DNA from: Bacteroidales bacterium
GTDB taxonomy: Bacteria > Bacteroidota > Bacteroidia > Bacteroidales > FEN-979
DNA length: 57,418 nt
Assembly (NCBI GenBank): GCA_016783905.1
Contig: JADHVQ010000004.1
Coordinates: 1 to 57,418, forward strand
Direction: 5' to 3'
Part shown: positions 1,461-49,365 of the stretch, in pieces
Layout of the letters: each line of letters starts with the position of its first letter
Position numbering within the stretch: position 1 is the first letter of the stretch
Translations under genes and position numbers: made by a program
Notes under the pieces: generated by a model
The model's database searches: none
What the model saw: only the letters and a program-made list of their open reading frames with translations
Told to the model about the DNA's origin: nothing

Positions 1461-2873
1461 ATGGAGAAGTCAAACCGTCATGACAAATTCCTGCAACTCA
1501 GGGATGAATTTGCTTGTTTTACCTATGAAGGGTATGACTACAGCTACTCCGGCCATGGATTGGATATCCGTTTCTATTTCAACCTGGCCGACCGGTACAA
1601 CTTTTCTCCTACTATCTTCATCCCGCACAAGGAGTTCTTCATCCCTGAAGAACAGATCATGAATCTCCTCCCAAGCCTGGTCTTTCATCTGGGATTGATC
1701 GAACTGATCAGTTACTGGAAAGCCGCCTGCCCTCCGCAGGTGATCATCAAGCCTCACGCACTCTCCCCCGACCAGGTTGCATGGTGGAAAAAATGCTGGT
1801 TCAACGGCCTCGGCGAGTTCTTCTTCCTTAACTCCATCTCCACAGATATAGAACACTTCCTCGAGGTAAAGGTTGCTTCTGACGATCACCTGGAGCCCAT
1901 TCATTACTCCCTGTTACCCGATGTGATCGTCCCGGTAGGAGGCGGAAAAGATTCCGTGGTAACCCTCGAAATCCTTAGGAAACGCTTCGGTGTAACCTCT
2001 ATGATCCTCAATCCTCGGGGAGCAAGCGTGCATAGCATATTCATAGCAGGATTTGCCCACTCCGGGATGATCGGGATCCACCGTACCATCGATCCTCTCC
2101 TGTTGCAGCTCAACGAAGAGGGATTCCTCAACGGTCATACCCCCTTCTCGGCGCTGCTGGCTTTCTTGAGCATCCTCTCAGCCGTCATCTCCGGGAAGAA
2201 ATACATCGCCCTCTCCAACGAATCAAGCGCCAACGAAACCACTATCCCGGGCCTGACGGTCAACCACCAGTACTCAAAAACATTTGAATTCGAAGAGGAT
2301 TTTCGCAACTATGTAAAAAGCTGGATTTGTCCTGAAATTGACTATTTCAGCTTCCTTCGTCCCCTTAATGAAATCCAGATCGCCGGCCTCTTTACACGTT
2401 ATTCCAAGTATTTCCAGGTATTCAAGAGCTGCAACGTGGGTAGCAAAACCGATTCGTGGTGCGGAAAATGTGCCAAATGCCTCTTTACATACATTATGAT
2501 GGCCGCTTTCCTGAAGCCGGAACAGCTGGCGGAAATTTTTCGCAGAGATATTCTTGACGATATCAACCTGAAGCCGCTATTTGACCAGCTCATCGGCATA
2601 GCTCCTGAAAAGCCCTTCGAGTGCGTAGGAACAATCTCTGAAGTGAACGCCGCCCTGCAAGAGACAATCACAAAGTATGCGAACCAATCCCTCCCCGCCC
2701 TGTTGGAATACTACAACACACTCCCCTTTACCCCCACTACCCCCACTACCCCACCTAACCCGATCACCAGCTCAGAAACCTCATCCTTCCAATCCCTCCT
2801 CCAAGCCTGGGATCCGCAGAATTGTCTACCCCACCAGTTTGAAGAGTTGCTGAAAGGAGTCCTCTATGGTTGA
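1461..2873 (+). CDS. murL: UDP-MurNAc-L-Ala-L-Glu epimerase (MurL family)
   Basis: PP-loop VPVGGGKDS, NGHTPFSA, SNESSANE, NHQYSK, SCN..WCGKCAKCLF and KPFECVG motifs; overlaps a murD homolog. Confidence 0.8.
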   Translation: MEKSNRHDKFLQLRDEFACFTYEGYDYSYSGHGLDIRFYFNLADRYNFSPTIFIPHKEFFIPEEQIMNLLPSLVFHLGLIELISYWKAACPPQVIIKPHALSPDQVAWWKKCWFNGLGEFFFLNSISTDIEHFLEVKVASDDHLEPIHYSLLPDVIVPVGGGKDSVVTLEILRKRFGVTSMILNPRGASVHSIFIAGFAHSGMIGIHRTIDPLLLQLNEEGFLNGHTPFSALLAFLSILSAVISGKKYIALSNESSANETTIPGLTVNHQYSKTFEFEEDFRNYVKSWICPEIDYFSFLRPLNEIQIAGLFTRYSKYFQVFKSCNVGSKTDSWCGKCAKCLFTYIMMAAFLKPEQLAEIFRRDILDDINLKPLFDQLIGIAPEKPFECVGTISEVNAALQETITKYANQSLPALLEYYNTLPFTPTTPTTPPNPITSSETSSFQSLLQAWDPQNCLPHQFEELLKGVLYG

Positions 2874-4251
2874 ACTTCTTCGCCGGCGCCTGGGAGGGAA
2901 GAAAATCCTCCTGCTGGGCTTTGGCCGTGAAGGGGAGTCATCGTATCGCGTGATCAGGAAACTATGGCCAAACCAAAAGATCTGGATTGCCGACTGCAAT
3001 CCTGACGTGACCGGTAACATCCTGCTCCACGGAGATCAAAACCTTGAATTTCAGTGCGGGGAACATTACCTTGAGGGATTAAACCGGTTCGACGTGATCC
3101 TGAAATCTCCGGGGATCATTCTGAAGAAGCTGAAAGAGCCGGTCAATGAATCACGGATCACCTCCCAGACCGATCTATTCCTTGAAATTTTCGCCCCGCA
3201 GGTTACCGGCATCACTGGTACCAAAGGGAAAAGCACCACCACCAGCCTGATCGCCCACATGCTCACCACGGGCGGGAAAGAGACCATCCTGCTCGGGAAC
3301 ATCGGCACCCCGGCCTGGCACTTTTTCGACCTGATCACACCCCAAACACTCATCGTCAACGAGATCTCATCACACCAGCTCGAATACATCCGCCACGGGC
3401 CGCACATCTCCCTGCTGCTCAATATCTTCGAAGAACACCTTGATGCCTACCGCTCCTACCACGACTACCAGCTGGCCAAGATGAAGATCGCCACCACACA
3501 GGTTGCTGGCGATTACTTTCTGTATAACAGTGATGACACCCTCATCCGGGAGCACATCGGATCGCTGCCACTAAAACCGCAGCTGATACCTCTCTCCCTG
3601 CAACAGCAATTTGACGTTGGTGCCTTCAAACGAAACGGGGAACTGGTGATCCGGATCCCGGGGCGAAACGAGCTGGTCGTCCATGAACCACACAACCGGT
3701 ACCTGAAAGGGGAACACAACCTGCGCAACATCCTGGCCGCTATCACTGCCTGCTGGCTTCAGCGAGTAACCGAAGAGGCCATCCTCGACGGGCTGGCTTC
3801 ATTCAAAGGACTGGCCCACCGCATGGAGTACCTGGGGTGCCAGCATGGGATTCACTGGGTGAATGACTCCATTGCCACCATCCCCGAAGCCTGCATCGCT
3901 GCCATGCAATCCCTCCCCGATGTGGATACCCTTATCCTGGGTGGATTCGACCGGGGGATCGACTACGAAATGCTGAGCCGGTTCCTGCTTCAGGCTCCGG
4001 TACGGACATTGATCTTCAATGGGGCTGCCGGCCGGCGGATCGGCACGGAGTTGGAAAAGATAGATCAAACAATAAAAACGCGGAAAAAGCTGTTTTACAT
4101 CAACCGTTTCGATGACCTACTGCCACTGGTGCTGGAACACACCCGGCAGGGAACCACTTGCCTCCTGTCTCCGGCTGCCGCCAGCTACGACGAATTTCGC
4201 AGCTTTGAAGAACGCGGCTTACGCTTCCGGCAACTGGTAACCGAAGAATGA
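2866..4251 (+). CDS. murD: MurD family UDP-MurNAc-L-Ala--glutamate ligase (likely L-Glu-adding MurD2, given the murL link)
   Basis: GFGREG, KSPGI, GITGTKGKSTT, EISSHQL, HRME, NDSIAT, LILGG.DRG and LLSPAAASYD motifs. Confidence 0.9.
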   Translation: MVELLRRRLGGKKILLLGFGREGESSYRVIRKLWPNQKIWIADCNPDVTGNILLHGDQNLEFQCGEHYLEGLNRFDVILKSPGIILKKLKEPVNESRITSQTDLFLEIFAPQVTGITGTKGKSTTTSLIAHMLTTGGKETILLGNIGTPAWHFFDLITPQTLIVNEISSHQLEYIRHGPHISLLLNIFEEHLDAYRSYHDYQLAKMKIATTQVAGDYFLYNSDDTLIREHIGSLPLKPQLIPLSLQQQFDVGAFKRNGELVIRIPGRNELVVHEPHNRYLKGEHNLRNILAAITACWLQRVTEEAILDGLASFKGLAHRMEYLGCQHGIHWVNDSIATIPEACIAAMQSLPDVDTLILGGFDRGIDYEMLSRFLLQAPVRTLIFNGAAGRRIGTELEKIDQTIKTRKKLFYINRFDDLLPLVLEHTRQGTTCLLSPAAASYDEFRSFEERGLRFRQLVTEE

Positions 4252-4403: not shown

Positions 4404-5456
4404 ATGAACCTCCTCTTAAAAATATTCTCACCACCTCACCACCTCACTACCCACACTACCTTCACCACCCACACTACCTTCACCACCCACACTGCCCTCA
4501 CCCCCCTCACTACCCTCACCACCCTCACCATCCTCACCACAATCTTGTTCCTCTCATTTTTCTCTGCCAAAGCTCAAACCTCTTATGAGGATCAGGTCCA
4601 CGCTTACATTGATGCTTACAAAGAGATCGTGGTTCAGGACATGCGCACCTACGGCATCCCGGCCAGCATCAAGCTGGCACAGGCAATCATTGAATCAAGA
4701 GCCGGGCAGAGCATCCTGTCCAGGGAGGCTAACAACCATTTCGGAATTAAGTGCCACAAGGAATGGACCGGGAAGACTTACTGGATGGACGATGATGCTC
4801 CTAATGAGTGCTTCCGGAAATACGACCATGCCGCGAAGTCGTTCCGTGACCACTCTGAGTTCCTGACCACCCGGGACCGCTATCAGTTCCTCTTTTCACT
4901 CGATGTCCAGGACTACCGGGCCTGGGCTTACGGACTGAAGTCGGCGGGTTACGCTACCAATCCGAAATACCCCGACATGCTGATCGACATCATCGAACGT
5001 TTCTCGCTCAACCAATACGATCTTCCTGAAGAAGCGGTGGTAGCGGTGGCCACTACACAAGCTGATGAAAACCTCATGGAGGCCTACCGGCAGTTACTCG
5101 CCTACTTTGCCCCGGGCCCCAACAACCGGAAGGTCTACCTGAATAACAATGTCCAATGCACCATAGCGCTGGAGGATGATGACCTGCTAAAGATTGCCCG
5201 CGATTTTCAAGTGAAGGCAGCTGATTTGTTGCGATTCAACGACCTGAAAAGGGCCGGAGGAGTCAGGGAAGGCCAGGTAGTCTACCTCGGGAAAAAGAAA
5301 CGGAAAGCAGTGCAAAAACAACATGTGGTTGGCTACAACCAAACCATGTGGGAGATTTCCCAGGTCTTTGGCATCCGCCTGGCCAACCTCTACCGTAAAA
5401 ATCTGCTCCCCGAAGGCTATGCCCCCCCCGCCGGAAAGATACTAAAGCTAAAGTAA
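4404..5456 (+). CDS. GH73 glucosaminidase with C-terminal LysM domains (autolysin)
   Basis: GIPASIKLAQAIIES, ANNHFGIKCH, CFRKY, GYATNPKY and two LysM-like domains; likely start MNLLLK at 4404, since the longer ORF start only translates an intergenic repeat. Confidence 0.9.
   Translation: MNLLLKIFSPPHHLTTHTTFTTHTTFTTHTALTPLTTLTTLTILTTILFLSFFSAKAQTSYEDQVHAYIDAYKEIVVQDMRTYGIPASIKLAQAIIESRAGQSILSREANNHFGIKCHKEWTGKTYWMDDDAPNECFRKYDHAAKSFRDHSEFLTTRDRYQFLFSLDVQDYRAWAYGLKSAGYATNPKYPDMLIDIIERFSLNQYDLPEEAVVAVATTQADENLMEAYRQLLAYFAPGPNNRKVYLNNNVQCTIALEDDDLLKIARDFQVKAADLLRFNDLKRAGGVREGQVVYLGKKKRKAVQKQHVVGYNQTMWEISQVFGIRLANLYRKNLLPEGYAPPAGKILKLK
4427..4540 (+). repeat. In-frame 8/9-nt C-rich tandem array within the signal peptide
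   Basis: ctcaccac and accacccacactaccttc-type units encoding TTHTTFTTHTTFTTHTALTPLTTLTTLT. Confidence 0.85.
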
Positions 5457-29529: not shown

Positions 29530-30633
29530 ATGAAGCTTTCGTCACGTATGGTGAGCACCTCCCGGTACCCTGTCATGATAGGGGAGGAGGCGTTGGAACA
29601 GCTCCGGAAGCACCTGACACGCTGCCGGAAGCTAAAGTCAAAGCTGTTCATCCTGACCGATGCCAATACCCAACGGTTTTGCCTTCCCAAACTCATCACA
29701 CGCATCCCGGAGCTGGAGGAAGTGACCATGCTGAGCATCGACAGTGGGGAGGAGGTGAAAAGCCTCCGTACGGCTGAGTATCTCTGGAAAGAACTTGGGT
29801 CACAGCAGGCGGATAGGAGTTCCCTGCTGATCAACCTGGGTGGCGGGGTGGTGACTGATCTTGGTGGTTTTGTAGCTTCATCGTTTCATCGCGGAATCGA
29901 AACGGTGCACATTCCCACCTCCCTGATCGGTCAGATTGATGCGGCAATCGGGGGTAAGACAGGCGTGAACATGGATGTGCTTAAAAACCAGGTGGGGAGC
30001 TTTTGGGCCCCGAAGGGAGTCTACGTATGGCCCGGATTTCTCGAGACTCTGCCCCGGGACCAGGTGCGTTCAGGACTGGCTGAGGTTGCCAAAACGGCTC
30101 TTATTCGCGATGAACAGTTCTGGCGGTGGCTCTCACGGAAACCGGTTCATAAGATTTTGGAGATCCCTTTTTCCGATCATTTTTGGAAGGAGCTCCTCCT
30201 GAATACCATTCGGATCAAACTGGAGATTGTCCGTCACGATCCGTTTGAACGGAACCAGCGGAAGCTGCTCAACTTTGGCCACACCATCGGTCATGCCATC
30301 GAGTCGCTGGCCCTGCGGCGCGAAACCCCTGTGCTGCATGGTGATGCCGTAGCTGCCGGAATGGCCTGCGAAAGCTTCCTATCGGTTCAGCGAACCGGCC
30401 TGGATCCCCTTCAGCTGGAAGCGATCAATGGCTGGATCCAGCAGGGATTCGGAAAGCTGCCGTTGCTGCAGGAAGATGAATCGGTACGTATGGACATGAT
30501 GCAGCACGACAAGAAAAACAGGCAACAGGAGATCCGCTTCACCCTCCTCTCACGCATCGGTCAGGGCAAGATCAACCAGGTATGTTCGCCGGATCAGATC
30601 CGAGACGCCTTCGGAAAGTATTACAACCTCTGA
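29530..30633 (+). CDS. aroB: 3-dehydroquinate synthase
   Basis: GEEVK, LGGGVVTDLGGF, DAAIGGKTG, LNFGHTIGHAIE, HGDAVA, DKK. Confidence 0.96.
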   Translation: MKLSSRMVSTSRYPVMIGEEALEQLRKHLTRCRKLKSKLFILTDANTQRFCLPKLITRIPELEEVTMLSIDSGEEVKSLRTAEYLWKELGSQQADRSSLLINLGGGVVTDLGGFVASSFHRGIETVHIPTSLIGQIDAAIGGKTGVNMDVLKNQVGSFWAPKGVYVWPGFLETLPRDQVRSGLAEVAKTALIRDEQFWRWLSRKPVHKILEIPFSDHFWKELLLNTIRIKLEIVRHDPFERNQRKLLNFGHTIGHAIESLALRRETPVLHGDAVAAGMACESFLSVQRTGLDPLQLEAINGWIQQGFGKLPLLQEDESVRMDMMQHDKKNRQQEIRFTLLSRIGQGKINQVCSPDQIRDAFGKYYNL

Positions 30634-30644
30634 TCGACATACTG

Positions 30645-32093
30645 ATGGCTGTTTACACCATTACCAAAGAGAACCAGACCCTCACCGGCCATATTTCCCT
30701 GCCGGCTTCCAAGAGTATCAGTAACCGGTTGCTGATCATCCGGGCTTTGTGTAGCACCGACATCCAATTGGAGAACCTTTCGATGGCCGAAGATACCCTC
30801 CTGATGCAGGAGCTGCTACAGCAGATACAGGATGTTTCCACCGTTTCACCCCATCCGCTCGATACCCGGAATGCTGGTACCGTGATGCGATTCCTCACTG
30901 CCTATCTCACGACGAAACCCGGTATCTGGCTCCTGCACGGCAGTGACCGGATGCATAAACGACCGGTTGGCATTCTGGTAGAGGCACTCCGAAGCCTGGG
31001 TGCGGCTATTGATTATGCGGGCTTACCAGGATACCCTCCGCTGAGGATCACCGGCAAGCAACTACAGGGAGGAGAGGTGACCGTGGATGTTTCCGTCAGC
31101 AGCCAGTTTGTATCCGCTCTATTGATGATTGCCCCCTGCCTGCCCGCAGGCCTCACCATACGGATGATCGGAGAACAGGTTTCCTTTCCTTACGTAGAGA
31201 TGACCCGGCGGCTGATGGAAGAGTTCGGGGCCGTTGTGGAACGACAAACAGACTCGCTGATCGTCAAGCACGGGCATTACCGGACCGAAATGATCCACCC
31301 CAGCGGTTACCAGGTGGAGTCCGATTGGTCGGCAGCAGCCTTCTGGTACGAAGCTGCGGCCCTTTCTGACTCCGCTGAGATCCGGCTTCCCGGGTTACGC
31401 AAAGACAGCCTCCAGGGAGATGCGGTGGTTGCGGAGATCTTCAAACACCTCGGTGTTGAAACGATATATGAGAAGGAGGGAGTTTTATTGACAAGGCAAA
31501 AGGCACAAGGCAAGAGGCATAAGTCGGCAGTGGGCAGATGGCAGTCTAAAAAAACCGTTCCTCATTCCTCACTCCTCATTCCTCATTCCCCTTCGTCCCT
31601 CGTCCCTCGTCCTTCGTCCCTCGTCCCTCGTCCTTCGTCCCTCGTCCCTCGTCCTTCGTCCCTCGTCCTTCGTCCTTCGTCCCTCGTCCTTCGTCCCTCG
31701 TCCCTCGACCTTTCCGCACACCCCGATCTCGTTCCACCGCTGATCGTGACCTATGCTGCACTGGGGATTCCCTCCCGTTTTTCCGGACTTCAGCACCTGA
31801 AGATCAAGGAGAGTGACCGGTTAAAAGCATTGCAACAAGAGCTTCATCGCCTGGGATTTACCCTCAGGATTCCGGAACCTGGGATCATCGAGACGGTTTC
31901 CGGAAAACCGGCCGTTTCTCCAGCCATCTCCCCGGTAATTGTCGAGACCTACAGCGACCACCGGATAGCCATGGCGTTTGCCCTGCTGGCTCTGAAAACA
32001 GGGATCATCCGCATCGCAAACCCCTCCGTGGTCTCAAAGTCCTACCCTGGCTTCTGGAAGGAGATGAAACGCATTGGATTCGAAATTCGTTAG
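30645..32093 (+). CDS. aroA: EPSP synthase with a ~60-70 aa repeat-derived insertion
   Basis: PASKSISNR, NAGTVMRF, SSQFVSALL, ESDWS, KIKESDR, DHRIAM, VSKSYP.F; start MAVYT at 30645. Confidence 0.93.
   Translation: MAVYTITKENQTLTGHISLPASKSISNRLLIIRALCSTDIQLENLSMAEDTLLMQELLQQIQDVSTVSPHPLDTRNAGTVMRFLTAYLTTKPGIWLLHGSDRMHKRPVGILVEALRSLGAAIDYAGLPGYPPLRITGKQLQGGEVTVDVSVSSQFVSALLMIAPCLPAGLTIRMIGEQVSFPYVEMTRRLMEEFGAVVERQTDSLIVKHGHYRTEMIHPSGYQVESDWSAAAFWYEAAALSDSAEIRLPGLRKDSLQGDAVVAEIFKHLGVETIYEKEGVLLTRQKAQGKRHKSAVGRWQSKKTVPHSSLLIPHSPSSLVPRPSSLVPRPSSLVPRPSSLVLRPSSLVLRPSSLDLSAHPDLVPPLIVTYAALGIPSRFSGLQHLKIKESDRLKALQQELHRLGFTLRIPEPGIIETVSGKPAVSPAISPVIVETYSDHRIAMAFALLALKTGIIRIANPSVVSKSYPGFWKEMKRIGFEIR
31494..31704 (+). 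repeat. Composite heptamer arrays inside aroA, including (TCGTCCY)x16 at 31593-31704
   Basis: AGGCAnn x3, GGCAGnn x3, YTCCTCA x4, then 16 contiguous TCGTCCC/TCGTCCT units. Confidence 0.95.
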
Positions 32094-32276
32094 ACGTTAG
32101 ACGGATGACTATATGACCGTATTTCGTATTTCCGTATGACAGTATGACCAAATGACCGTTCATATTTTTTCGTACATTTGACCCTTAATTCCTTTGCTTC
32201 GGCATCCCGCTTGGGTGGGAACCTTCGCAACGACATATATCCCTAATCGCTAATCACTGATCCCTAATCCCCACTT
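32088..32276. repeat. Intergenic mosaic of short arrays plus a degenerate palindrome
   Basis: cgttaga x2 over the aroA stop; ATGAC-containing octamers; ttgcttcg...tcgcaacgac with inner tcccgc/gtggga hairpin; atcccta atcgcta atcactg atcccta atcccca; TACATTTG at 32173-32180. Confidence 0.7.
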
Positions 32277-33009: not shown

Positions 33010-35163
33010 ATGAGCACTGAACATTATGCTCAGATCCTTGCCACCGAACTTGGTGTGGCAGAAGCCTTTATAAAGAGCACTATCCATCTTCTGGAGAGCG
33101 GAGCCACCATTCCCTTTATTGCCCGTTACCGGAAAGAGATGACCGGAAGCATGGATGAGACCGTGATCACCCGGGTACGTGACCGGTTGCAGCAGCTCAA
33201 AGATCTGGATGCCCGACGGGAGACAATCCTCAGATCGCTGCGTGAGCAGGAGAAGCTGACCGATGAACTGGAGGAGGCTGTGATGAAAGCGGCTTCCATG
33301 GCCGAGCTGGAAGATATCTACCTGCCTTACAAACCCAAGCGCAAGACCCGCGCCAGCATGGCCCGCGAGAAAGGGTTGGAACCCCTGGCCAAGATTATTA
33401 TGTCGCAACGGTATGATGATATTGAACGCCGTGCCGAGTCATTCATTGATCCGGAAAAAGGGGTCAACGATGTGGAAGAGGCGCTACAGGGCGCCAGCGA
33501 TATCATCGCCGAGTGGGTCAATGAAGATGCCTATGCCCGCAAGCGGATCCGTCAGCTCTTCCAGCGCGAATCCATCATCACTTCGAAAGTGGTGAAGGGA
33601 AAAGAGGAAGAGGGGGCCAAATTCGAGACCTATTTCGACACACATGAACTGCTGCATAAAGCGCCTTCACACCGGATTCTGGCGATGTTTCGCGGGGAGA
33701 AGGAGGAATTTCTCAAGGTGAATGTGGAGGTGGAAGAGGATCGGGGAGAGGAGATCCTCGGACGAATCTTCATCAAAGGGAACAACGCCTCCTCGGAGCT
33801 GGTAGCGAAAGCAATCAGGGACTGCACCAAACGCCTCCTATACCCCAGCATGGAGACCGAAATGCGGCAGTGGATCAAAGAGAAAGCGGATGAAGAGGCG
33901 ATCCGTGTCTTTGCTGAAAACCTTCGTCAGTTGCTGATGGCTCCCCCGCTGGGACAGAAGCGGGTGCTCGCCATCGACCCCGGATACCGGACCGGTTGCA
34001 AGATCGTCTGCCTCGATGCCCAGGGGAAGCTGCTTCATAACGAAACGATCTACCCGCATCCTCCGCAAAATGAGGTGAAGGAGTCGATCCACAAGATCAA
34101 AACTCTTGTCAAGGCTTATAAGATCGAAGCGATCGCCATCGGCAACGGCACGGCCAGCCGTGAAACCGAGCGCCTTGTCCGCTCCATCCGGTTCGATACC
34201 GACCTCATTGCACTGGTGGTGAACGAAAGCGGCGCTTCGGTCTATTCGGCCAGCGATGTGGCCCGAAAGGAGTTCCCCGATTTCGATGTTACTGTAAGGG
34301 GCTCCGTGAGCATCGGCCGCCGGTTGATGGACCCGTTGGCCGAACTGGTGAAGATCGATCCGAAATCAATTGGCGTGGGACAGTACCAGCACGATGTCGA
34401 TCAATCAGCACTGCAACAGAGCCTGGCCGGCACAGTCGAGAGCTCTGTCAACATGGTGGGGGTAGAGGTCAACACCGCCAGCGAACAGCTGCTTACCTTC
34501 GTGTCAGGTGTCGGCCCAAACCTGGCCAGAAACATCATCAGCTTCCGGAACCAACATGGCCCTTTTTCTTCCCGCCAGGAGTTTATGAAGGTTCCCCGTT
34601 TCGGTGAGAAAGCCTTCGAGCAGTCTGCCGGCTTCCTCCGGATCCGCGAAGCCAAAAACCCACTCGATGGAAGCGCGGTCCATCCCGAGAGTTACCATGT
34701 GGTAGATAAGATGGCCAAACGGCTGAAATGCTCCATCCCGGATCTCATCGCCAGAGCTGAGTTGCGGAACCAGATCGACCTGAAGGAGTATGTGACCGAG
34801 AAGACAGGCCTGCCCACCCTTGAAGATATTATCACGGAGCTGGCGAAACCGGGCCGGGACCCGAGGATGAAGTTTGAGATCTTTGAATTTGATAAAAATA
34901 TCCATGCCATTCATGATCTCCGTCCAGGGATGAAGCTCCCCGGCATCGTTACCAACATCACTGCCTTCGGAGCGTTTGTGGATTTAGGTGTGCACCAGGA
35001 CGGGCTGGTCCACATCAGCCAGATGGCCGACCGGTTTGTGAGGGACCCCAACGACATAGTGAAGATCAATCAAAAAGTGATGGTAGAGGTGCTGGATGTT
35101 GACATCAACCGGAAACGCATCCAGCTTTCGATGAAAGGACTGAATAATAACGGGGGGAATTAA
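33010..35163 (+). CDS. tex: Tex family transcription accessory protein
   Basis: GATIPFIARYRKE, DPGYRTGCK, GNGTASRET, ESGASVYS, IGVGQYQHD, C-terminal S1 domain. Confidence 0.96.
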   Translation: MSTEHYAQILATELGVAEAFIKSTIHLLESGATIPFIARYRKEMTGSMDETVITRVRDRLQQLKDLDARRETILRSLREQEKLTDELEEAVMKAASMAELEDIYLPYKPKRKTRASMAREKGLEPLAKIIMSQRYDDIERRAESFIDPEKGVNDVEEALQGASDIIAEWVNEDAYARKRIRQLFQRESIITSKVVKGKEEEGAKFETYFDTHELLHKAPSHRILAMFRGEKEEFLKVNVEVEEDRGEEILGRIFIKGNNASSELVAKAIRDCTKRLLYPSMETEMRQWIKEKADEEAIRVFAENLRQLLMAPPLGQKRVLAIDPGYRTGCKIVCLDAQGKLLHNETIYPHPPQNEVKESIHKIKTLVKAYKIEAIAIGNGTASRETERLVRSIRFDTDLIALVVNESGASVYSASDVARKEFPDFDVTVRGSVSIGRRLMDPLAELVKIDPKSIGVGQYQHDVDQSALQQSLAGTVESSVNMVGVEVNTASEQLLTFVSGVGPNLARNIISFRNQHGPFSSRQEFMKVPRFGEKAFEQSAGFLRIREAKNPLDGSAVHPESYHVVDKMAKRLKCSIPDLIARAELRNQIDLKEYVTEKTGLPTLEDIITELAKPGRDPRMKFEIFEFDKNIHAIHDLRPGMKLPGIVTNITAFGAFVDLGVHQDGLVHISQMADRFVRDPNDIVKINQKVMVEVLDVDINRKRIQLSMKGLNNNGGN

Positions 35164-47940: not shown

Positions 47941-49365
47941 ATGAAACAGATCCTCATCACCAACATCAAAGAGCTCATCAACATCGAAGAGACCCCCCGT
48001 CCCTTCGTCGCCGGGAAAGAGATGTCTAACCTGAAAACCCTCAAAAACGCCTGGCTGCTGATCGAAGGCGACCGTATTAAGGATTTCGGATCAATGGAAA
48101 CGTTGCCATCTGACCTCCAATCCAGGCTCTCCGATTCTGGCATAAAACACTACGAACTCTTCGACACCACTTCACCACTGCACCATGGCACCACTGCCCC
48201 CCCCTCACCCCCCTCACCCCCCTCACCACCCTCACCACCAGTCCCCAGTCCCCAGTCCCCAGTCAAAACATTTCATCCGCTTCGTCAGTACGATGATCTG
48301 ACCGTTATCGACGCCACGAACCGCTTCGTTTTTCCCTCCTTCTGTGACTCCCATACCCATTTGGTCTATGCCGGAAGCCGGGAGATCGAGTATGTGGACA
48401 AGATCAAAGGATTCAGCTATGAAGAGATCGCCAAACGGGGTGGTGGGATCCTGAACTCGGCGAAACTGCTGCACGAAACCTCTGAGGAGGAGCTGGTGGA
48501 ACAGGCGATGGACAGGTTGAACGAAATCATCAGCCTGGGAACAGGGGCCGTGGAGATCAAGAGCGGTTATGGTCTCACCGTGGAAGATGAGCTAAAGATG
48601 CTGCGGGTGATCCGGAAGCTGAAGGAGTTATCTCCCCTTACGATTGTTTCTACCTTTCTGGGAGCACATGCTATTCCGGCCGGGTACGAGGGGAGGCAAA
48701 CCGATTATGTCGATTTGGTGATCAGCGAAATGATCCCGCAGGTAGCAACAGAAGAGCTGGCCGACTTCATTGATGTCTTCTGCGACAGGGGCTTCTTCAC
48801 CGTGGAGGATACCGACCGGATCCTCAATGCAGGGATGAAATACGGTCTGCGCCCTAAAATCCATGCCAATGAACTTGATTATTCGGGAGGCATCCAGGTA
48901 GGGGTGAAGCATAACGCGTTATCAGTCGATCACCTTGAATATACCGGCGATGCTGAGATCGCCTGCCTGCTGCAATCCGCAACCATGCCTGTCATCCTTC
49001 CCGGAGCTGCCTTTTTCCTGAATATGATTCATGCTCCGGCCCGGAAGATGATCGATGCCGGGCTACCGGTCGCATTCGCCAGTGACTTCAATCCCGGCTC
49101 CAGTCCAACCGGCAACATGCAACTGATCCTCTCCATGGCCTGCATCACCTACCGGCTGTTGCCCGAAGAAGCCATCCATGCAACCACCCTCAACGGAGCC
49201 TATGCCATGGGAGTGAGTGATGAACTGGGCAGCATTGCCCGCGGCAAGAGGGCCAACCTCTTCATCACCAAACCCATCTCCACCTATGAGTTCATGCCCT
49301 ATGCATACGGAAGTAATAAAGTCGATTCAGTTATCTTGAACGGCGAGTTTTGGATGTATAAATGA
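47941..49365 (+). CDS. hutI: Imidazolonepropionase with a low-complexity insertion
   Basis: DSHTHLV, GGGILNS, EIKSGYGL, GAHA, DVFCD.G.F, IHANEL, DHLE, SDFNPGS; start MKQIL at 47941. Confidence 0.95.
   Translation: MKQILITNIKELINIEETPRPFVAGKEMSNLKTLKNAWLLIEGDRIKDFGSMETLPSDLQSRLSDSGIKHYELFDTTSPLHHGTTAPPSPPSPPSPPSPPVPSPQSPVKTFHPLRQYDDLTVIDATNRFVFPSFCDSHTHLVYAGSREIEYVDKIKGFSYEEIAKRGGGILNSAKLLHETSEEELVEQAMDRLNEIISLGTGAVEIKSGYGLTVEDELKMLRVIRKLKELSPLTIVSTFLGAHAIPAGYEGRQTDYVDLVISEMIPQVATEELADFIDVFCDRGFFTVEDTDRILNAGMKYGLRPKIHANELDYSGGIQVGVKHNALSVDHLEYTGDAEIACLLQSATMPVILPGAAFFLNMIHAPARKMIDAGLPVAFASDFNPGSSPTGNMQLILSMACITYRLLPEEAIHATTLNGAYAMGVSDELGSIARGKRANLFITKPISTYEFMPYAYGSNKVDSVILNGEFWMYK
48165..48264 (+). 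repeat. Composite 8-, 9- and 7-mer arrays in frame inside hutI
   Basis: caccactt caccactg caccatgg caccactg; CCMCCCTCA x4; CAGTCCC x3. Confidence 0.9.

Follow-up and report, generated by a model that had tools for sequence, protein, structure and literature searches.

In a Bacteroidales bacterium of the FEN-979 lineage, the gene aroA carries, within its open reading frame (ORF), an insert built from 30 tandem heptamers that fall into four sequence families. The gene lies on contig JADHVQ010000004.1 of assembly GCA_016783905.1, in the 57,418-nucleotide stretch of DNA that we analyzed as a whole and refer to as the window. We propose, with a probability of about 0.78, that this insert is a tolerated and translated loop of the enzyme EPSP synthase, disordered and hypervariable, that selection keeps in frame.

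The insert consists of four repeat modules and an A-rich spacer (Table 1). In the 7-nt register that begins at 31491, 14 heptamers run through 31588 and are followed by the 17 units of the TCGTCCY array, which keeps a register of its own, one base off. Tandem Repeats Finder (TRF) recovered three of the four families as arrays, and the fourth, module 2, whose three units fall under the program's threshold, was recognized by eye. These results bear out the sequence-only reading of this DNA, which had described an in-frame insertion of about 210 nt made of four heptamer families, with (TCGTCCY)x16 among them (x16.4 by TRF), and conserved EPSP synthase motifs in frame on both sides: the frame 30645-32093 is open throughout, and Pfam matches lie to the left and to the right of the repeats. 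The size of 210 nt holds as the span of the repeats but not as the length gained, since it includes the native loop. The flanking motifs are 255 nt apart in the window aroA vs 75 nt in the insert-free genomes G002 and G010, which gives a net gain of 180 nt (60 aa), with about 10 aa of the native loop overwritten. Module 4 can also be read with a 21-nt period (x5.6, 97% matches, TRF score 215); its two unit variants are arranged in the string ABBABBABBABAABAB plus one partial unit, and its final units encode the beta-strand SLDL (strand 352-355 in the structural model described below).

The gene start was placed at the ATG that lines up with the starts of its relatives (alignment A1). Pfam family PF00275 (EPSP_synthase) matches the product with 278.4 bits (gathering cut-off 22.8; E 1.2e-82) in two stretches that flank the insert, and the closest relative in the PDB is the Vibrio cholerae EPSP synthase 3nvs (E 1.5e-60), query residues 282-352 being left unaligned in both alignments printed. 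AroA has the EPSP synthase motif set LPxSKSxSNR, NAGT, SSQ, PD, KESDR, DHR and KSYP; in the translation of the ORF list, KESDR and DHR lie downstream of the insert and in the same frame. The residues K23, S24, N27, R28, N76-G78, S152-Q154, P360, D361, K388, E389, R392, D438-R440 and K465 show no variation among the 20 aligned AroA sequences. We take these motif residues to be equivalent to those of the E. coli enzyme, and D361 to be its catalytic Asp313, as an assumption rather than a computed mapping. No other EPSP synthase gene is present in the assembly, where the second PF00275 locus is MurA, and chorismate synthase is encoded as well, as is aroB. From these features we infer that the AroA of the window is a working EPSP synthase.

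We compared this locus across 11 genomes of the genus (G000-G010, G000 being that of the window) and nine further genomes of the family that belong to other genera. Heptamer-built inserts are found at this loop in 8 of the 11 genus genomes (G000, G001 and G003-G008), and all differ in length: the net gains are, in that order, +180, +45, +96, +27, +93, +72, +54 and +21 nt, each within a single open frame. The loop is short and free of an insert in G002, G009 and G010, as well as in the nine genomes of other genera. AroA identity to the window protein is 61-77% for the insert-bearing genomes vs 51-53% for these three. Modules recur across species, namely KAQG (AAGGCA units), AVGxWQ (GGCAGTK units) and RPSSF/L (TCGTCCY units), and module 1 in its AAGGCAM form is found again in G003 and G001. 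Because the modules are shared across species, the comparison points to a single ancestral composite insert followed by turnover. Four metagenomic proteins, P0003, P0006 (525 aa), P0007 and P0014, carry further in-frame versions of the insert, and a fifth, P0001, encoded on another contig, corresponds to the window AroA minus exactly 7 aa (PSSLVPR), that is, 21 nt or three units. Elsewhere in AroA, alignment A1 displays about 13-19 extra aa after helix 2 in G006, G001 and G005 (columns 73-95), 10 extra aa in G005 (columns 239-248) and 28 extra aa (HCHCEAPEYPEDAATASLSLRGSRVLGR) ahead of the last domain unit in G008 (columns 445-472).

An AlphaFold2 model of AroA, made with a 20-sequence alignment, has a mean predicted local distance difference test score (pLDDT) of 84.8 and a predicted template modeling score of 0.83. 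The model adopts the two-domain EPSP synthase fold, and Foldseek matched it to 3nvs (E 1.4e-35, TM-score 0.87 normalized by target) as well as to the E. coli structures 1g6s and 1q36. Residues 288-348 form the sole long segment of low confidence (pLDDT <50), which is modeled without secondary structure between strands 279-284 and 352-355, and the insert probably enlarges one hairpin loop at the surface as an intrinsically disordered stretch.

The units of the insert are also among the most common repeats of the assembly (2.47 Mb, 128 contigs). TRF returned 591 period-7, 309 period-8 and 262 period-9 rows genome-wide; the period-7 arrays that reach 3.5 copies or more number 386 and form 113 unit families, headed by TCGTCCC (37 arrays) and TCGTCCT (22), with GGCAGTT fifth and TTCCTCA sixth. 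The families of modules 2 and 3, counted as AACTGCC and AATGAGG, comprise 12 and 11 arrays, respectively. A crude ORF call leaves 8.5% of the genome non-coding, and 148 of the 386 arrays fall there; the same call puts 124 arrays inside genes, a count inflated by over-extended starts and repeat-made ORFs, and we relied on Pfam-checked cases instead. Out of 448 clusters of period-7/8/10/11 arrays, 81 lie at least 100 codons within long open frames, and when 20 host frames were tested with Pfam, 12 had family matches flanking or spanning an in-frame array, while the other 8 had matches on one side only or none. These hosts include PolA, ValRS and GltX (Table 1); the KAQG and AVGSWQ modules reappear in the PolA and ValRS inserts, those of PolA containing AAGGCAM units and both containing the units of module 2. 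The sequence (TCGTCCY)x3 occurs in all 11 genomes of the genus, including the three that lack the aroA insert, with 8-122 overlapping matches per genome vs 0 for the reversed control. Taken together, these data point to aroA as a particularly large member of a genome-wide habit of in-frame heptamer arrays in core genes. Within a sample of the order, TCGTCCC x3 arrays are found in 3 of 151 genomes only (G000, G031 and G156). G031 and G156, which belong to other families of the order, have 9 and 20 overlapping matches to the perfect (TCGTCCC)x3, and the other 148 genomes have none, a sporadic distribution.

Based on these observations, we propose the following scenario. The raw material would be the genome-wide population of 7-8-nt tandem arrays of this lineage, from which, before the closer members of the genus diverged from one another, an ancestral composite array may have come to lie in the loop, to be remodeled thereafter, as we infer, by replication slippage. 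Because 7 = 1 mod 3, a frame shift of one base is equivalent to a displacement of the array by one unit, and the same cyclic 7-aa repeat is read in all three frames; a heptamer array without stop trinucleotides is thus open in all of them, and TCGTCCC is open on both strands (SSLVPRP and GTRDEGR frames). As a result, a functional gene needs only a total length divisible by three. Purifying selection on aroA would retain the in-frame states and purge one- or two-unit changes, which would be truncated null alleles, and the array would be a mutational liability rather than a regulatory device. A tolerated loop built by repeat accretion was one of two options that the sequence-only reading had offered, and it gains support from the in-frame inserts in 8 of the 11 genomes, from the modeled disorder and from the use of the genome's commonest heptamers.

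Several observations weigh against this explanation. The aroA equivalog model TIGR01356 of NCBIfam scores 282.5 bits on AroA, below its cut-off of 287.25; it is still the top-scoring family (MurA, 48.4 bits), and its match comes in two pieces parted by the insert, which pushes the score slightly below the cut-off, such that automatic naming of AroA through this model could fail. The insert ends eight residues ahead of the invariant P360-D361, and an effect on catalysis is possible. No Logan contig spans the 58 nt at 31620-31677, in the middle of the TCGTCCY array, and the count of 16-17 units comes from the short-read assembly alone. Moreover, an assembler that collapses a 21-nt-periodic repeat keeps the frame by construction, which makes the in-frame array and P0001 weak evidence when taken alone. 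Finally, the synonymous divergence of the aroA insert is about seven-fold below that of the core of the gene, unlike what is expected of a pure neutral passenger.

This last point comes from the comparison of G000 with G003, in which 40 codons of the aroA insert can be aligned and hold 13 differences, a small sample. The insert has 2.0 synonymous differences for 30.3 sites (pS 0.066) and 11.0 non-synonymous differences for 89.7 sites (pN 0.123), vs 145.8 for 309.5 (pS 0.471) and 126.2 for 929.5 (pN 0.136) in the core. Across codon positions 1, 2 and 3, the differences number 6, 2 and 5 in the insert, with no third-position excess, and 74, 51 and 147 in the core. At the nucleotide level, identity is 0.83-0.97 in the insert vs 0.28-0.5 in the downstream spacer, and the insert equals the best-conserved coding windows. 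In the same pair of genomes, the ValRS and PolA inserts reach pS 0.38-0.57 and pN 0.25-0.36 (pooled, 0.509 and 0.323; core pN 0.067); they diverge near-neutrally, which fits passenger sequence. Low synonymous divergence as a general trait of the inserts was rejected, since the ValRS and PolA inserts do not have it. The 60-nt windows that flank the aroA insert have identities of 0.88 and 0.80, inside the range of the gene (0.57-0.90), and a recent recombination tract is neither shown nor excluded by these values. The low divergence could be due to chance, recent exchange, conversion from other arrays or constraint at the nucleotide level.

The last of these would be expected if the inserts were copies of a polar, modular heptamer element, composed of AAGGCA/GGCACAG, GGCAGTK, further units and TCGTCCY in that order, that a sequence-specific process seeds behind stop codons and into essential genes, at loops that permit it, and then keeps homogeneous: nucleotide-level maintenance of the aroA copy would leave its synonymous sites about seven-fold less diverged. 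Templated synthesis, gene conversion from the array pool or a heptamer-binding protein could each provide such a process. Among the strict GGCAGTK arrays (n=18), AGTT precedes 13 (for example C84:9145, C97 on the - strand and C50:28523), and these arrays often open a composite array, with other unit families behind them. In 3 of the 18, and in aroA as well, the next 250 nt of the same strand bring a TCGTCCY array, vs 0 in the other three configurations of order and orientation. The order GGCAGTK-TCGTCCY hints at a polar, modular build, in small numbers, and we consider this element unlikely. If it did exist, it would imply an undescribed repeat-propagating mechanism common to scattered Bacteroidales lineages.

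A related possibility is that the insert has a function of its own, either in the nucleic acid (as a site for a heptamer-binding factor, a signal for translation pausing or a partner in gene conversion from the array pool) or in the protein, as a disordered tail for interaction or regulation. The low synonymous divergence without third-position excess, the identity far above that of the downstream spacer, the TCGTCCY family kept throughout the genus and present in two other families of the order, and the shared order of GGCAGTK and TCGTCCY would all agree with it. However, the ValRS and PolA inserts do not repeat the low synonymous divergence, which in aroA rests on few codons, and both the length and the sequence of the insert vary widely among congeners. 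In addition, no RNA structure signal was detected in the insert (fold z-score -0.15), and the AlphaFold2 model leaves it unfolded. We regard a dedicated function as quite improbable.

The other option of the sequence-only reading was a slipped-strand contingency locus, in which the TCGTCCY tract would slip by single units and a mixture of aroA-ON and aroA-OFF cells would be selected, the OFF state bringing auxotrophy for aromatic amino acids and a saved biosynthetic cost. Its premise, that changes in unit number not divisible by three shift the frame, was correct: the computed products of gains or losses of one or two units are truncated to 363-392 aa and lose KESDR and DHR, while those of three units are full-length (475 or 489 aa). 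The tract is thus potentially a switch, aroA being the only EPSP synthase gene. With about 17 copies of a 7-nt unit, it is the second longest period-7 array of the assembly, and high-frequency variation has been reported for biosynthesis genes of Campylobacter (PMC4611032). In contrast, aroA is out of frame in none of the other seven insert-bearing genomes of the genus, and the sole near-identical variant, P0001, is shorter by three units, in agreement with the 21-nt superperiod, from which it follows that recent expansions of the array proceeded in three-unit steps. Comparable arrays are present in ValRS, GltX and PolA, where an OFF state would not be viable; genes that are essential and single-copy cannot serve as ON/OFF switches. 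We also flagged 21 junctions at which an array stands where one frame ends and another opens. No family was split across the two frames at any of the 14 junctions tested; those with families have different ones on each side, several at full profile length, and 5 of the 14 pairs lack any family match. MutS and MutL are encoded, too. Consensus assemblies such as these cannot reveal minority OFF alleles, and weaken the switch rather than refute it. The genomic context is stronger evidence for a passenger over a switch than P0001 and the superperiod are, and we hold a contingency locus to be very unlikely.

As for an assembly artefact, in which repeat-rich metagenomic reads would have been wrongly joined into aroA, sequencing depth in the array does climb to thousands in the runs examined, the same heptamers being present at many loci, and the middle of the array is bridged by no contig. 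Nevertheless, over 31100-31619 and 31678-32100 the window has zero differences from the Logan contigs of three runs, X1 of one study and X2 and X4 of another, whose samples possibly supplied this DNA; on the left, these contigs start in unique aroA sequence and reach 125 nt into the insert, and on the right they cover 27 nt of it. Contigs of a further run, X6, cover only the ends and fragments of the array. In the RNA runs X15-X20, matching sequence words made up no more than 0.08. The insert is not a chimera, because contigs match on both sides, P0001 shares it from a different contig and the orthologous gene of G003 has its left 120 nt in common; the same codon position also bears inserts in seven other genomes, and a misjoin is hardly credible. 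Loss of the insert on the way to the mature enzyme, whether as an intron or intein or through ribosomal bypass, was considered solely on account of its place within a conserved enzyme core, had nothing in its favor and is just as implausible. All eight versions of the genus are open and in frame, which would be needless if the insert were removed from the RNA or bypassed by the ribosome; an Rfam search returned nothing in the insert, intron or other, and outside it a single mir-360 match due to chance (E 0.86); the fold z-score is near zero; and the low-complexity sequence has no intein-like fold in the model.

The tolerated loop can be compared with several known repeat systems. Heptameric simple sequence repeats (SSRs) make up the commonest class of long SSRs in prokaryotes, and genes usually hold units that are multiples of a triplet (Mrazek 2007, summarised in PMC4679880); described heptamer arrays include GGGNATC in Xanthomonas and Nostoc (PMC4692102) and TAACTGA in Beggiatoaceae, Cyanobacteria and five Bacteroidetes (PMC4679880). 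The present genome resembles those that carry heptameric long SSRs (LSSRs) or short tandemly repeated repetitive sequences (STRRs) in having many period-7 arrays from a few dominant families, enriched outside genes and near gene ends, with variable copy number and sporadic distribution. However, the arrays described in PMC4692102 are over-represented in non-coding and under-represented in coding DNA, whereas a composite of 30 units is here read through in a core enzyme, as are comparable arrays in PolA, ValRS and GltX. Geobacter metallireducens has 49 elements of four heptanucleotide repeats (GGACCGG), inside and between genes (PMC2700814), and thus also scatters one-family heptamer blocks through its genome; those blocks are fixed at four units and have been proposed to act as regulatory RNA, unlike the aroA insert, which brings together four families with as many as 17 units and is hypervariable from one species to the next. 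The contingency genes of Haemophilus and Neisseria (PMC4692102, PMC3315296) share with aroA a non-triplet tract within an ORF, where slippage of a single unit would switch the frame, but typically encode surface or restriction-modification functions and have ON and OFF alleles among strains, while aroA is a single-copy core biosynthetic gene of which only in-frame alleles are seen. Rickettsia palindromic elements (RPEs) likewise occur in frame in unrelated housekeeping genes and are believed to be translated without conflict with the fold of the host protein; an RPE measures about 150 bp, keeps a conserved sequence and has palindromic ends (PMC10969869), unlike the tandem heptamers of aroA, which grow and shrink where they lie. 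No conserved element with a palindrome or hairpin was found in the aroA insert (z-score as above), and what the inserts have in common from gene to gene is unit families, not a fixed element. Housekeeping proteins of Plasmodium falciparum carry low-complexity inserts in surface loops. There, as here, slippage-prone DNA across the genome endows the loops of conserved enzymes with inserts that are disordered and evolve fast, although the Plasmodium inserts come from AT-rich, triplet-compatible repeats in a eukaryote and that of aroA from 7-8-nt units in a bacterium. A literature search that left out subscription journals and supplements returned no report of a tandem-repeat insert in an EPSP synthase, nor of widespread in-frame heptamer arrays in housekeeping genes of Bacteroidales.

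Further arrays were noted around aroA and in the rest of the genome. Behind aroA, the orthologous array of G003 (GACGTGA / GGGACGT; L002, about 2870-3050) has about 20 units vs 2.3 in G000 and provides the TGA stop. Elsewhere in the window, CTCACCACC is repeated x12.9 at 4427-4540 within a 415-aa open frame, and CACCACTG, CCCCCCTCA and CCAGTCC arrays lie at 48165-48264 within a 497-aa open frame; both sites are either coding or upstream of the true starts. Two of the Pfam-checked host frames may be composite: in L026, an aconitase-family large-subunit domain and Aconitase_C are joined through the array, possibly a repeat-made fusion of formerly separate genes, and L027 is either a fusion or two genes read together. 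We considered loss of mismatch repair as a cause of repeat proliferation and rejected it, as MutS and MutL domains are present. The MutS-containing open frame (G000:C8:33600-36215, - strand, 872 aa) has a GATGCCG x4.6 array of its own (33753-33792) near the C-terminal end. At L052 (G000:C95:3-3262, - strand), a gene for a Y-family polymerase (IMS and IMS_C) precedes one for a DnaE-like polymerase (PHP, DNA_pol3_alpha, finger), and the two meet at a heptamer array. We take them to resemble mutagenesis pairs of the ImuB/DnaE2 type.

Table 1. The aroA locus of the window, the modules of its insert, and other genes of the assembly with in-frame arrays
Feature	Position	Strand	Description	Basis
aroB	29530..30633	+	3-dehydroquinate synthase, directly upstream of aroA	Pfam DHQ_synthase 8.2e-41, DHQS_C 3.6e-33
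aroA	30645..32093	+	EPSP synthase, 482 aa plus stop	ORF list, Pfam, PDB, Foldseek, alignment A1
In-frame insert	31494..31704	+	Codons 284-353, RQKAQGKR...RPSSL, 30 heptamers in four families	TRF, sequence, comparison with relatives
Module 1	31493..31523	+	AAGGCAM x4.4, encodes KAQGKRH	TRF (AAGGCAA), score 41
Module 2	31526..31546	+	GGCAGTG GGCAGAT GGCAGTC, encodes AVGRWQ	Read directly in sequence
A-rich spacer	31547..31557	+	TAAAAAAACCG, divides purine-rich half from pyrimidine-rich half	Sequence
Module 3	31558..31589	+	TTCCTCA x4.6, encodes PHSSLLIPHS	TRF, score 57
Module 4	31590..31707	+	TCGTCCY array, about 17 units, encodes (SSLV[PL]RP)n	TRF, TCGTCCC x16.4 at 31593-31707, score 188
Short heptamer arrays	32088..32137	+	CGTTAGA, CCGTATT, starting at the aroA stop codon	TRF
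ATCCCTA array	32239..32271	+	x4.7, just upstream of the next gene (start 32277)	TRF, ORF list
DNA polymerase I (PolA)	Residues 307-353		Array in linker	Pfam both sides or spanning
ValRS	Residues 481-514		Array inside catalytic domain	Pfam both sides or spanning
GltX	Residues 378-407		Array	Pfam both sides or spanning
Saccharopine dehydrogenase, KsgA, Mur ligase, PfkB kinase			In-frame arrays	Pfam both sides or spanning
ComEC, tricorn-like protease, alpha-2-macroglobulin			In-frame arrays	Pfam both sides or spanning
Aconitase-family frame (L026)	G000:C84:7261-9138		626 aa, CAGTCCA x11.9 array (residues 422-461)	Pfam both sides or spanning
MOSC + MoCF_biosynth frame (L027)	G000:C8:22558-23643		Two composite arrays (GATACGA / AGCAACC; AGTCCGC / CGTCCCT)	Pfam both sides or spanning

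Non-triplet microsatellites are usually kept out of coding sequence or used as switches. Under the explanation that we favor, a tolerated loop held in frame by selection, essential enzymes can carry non-triplet arrays in the long term: without a stop trinucleotide in it, a heptamer array reads through in every frame, which leaves selection only the total length to act on. Short-read assemblers break or collapse genes that bear such repeats. For this lineage, the inserts would provide a natural map of the permissive loops in EPSP synthase, the target of glyphosate, and in other core enzymes.

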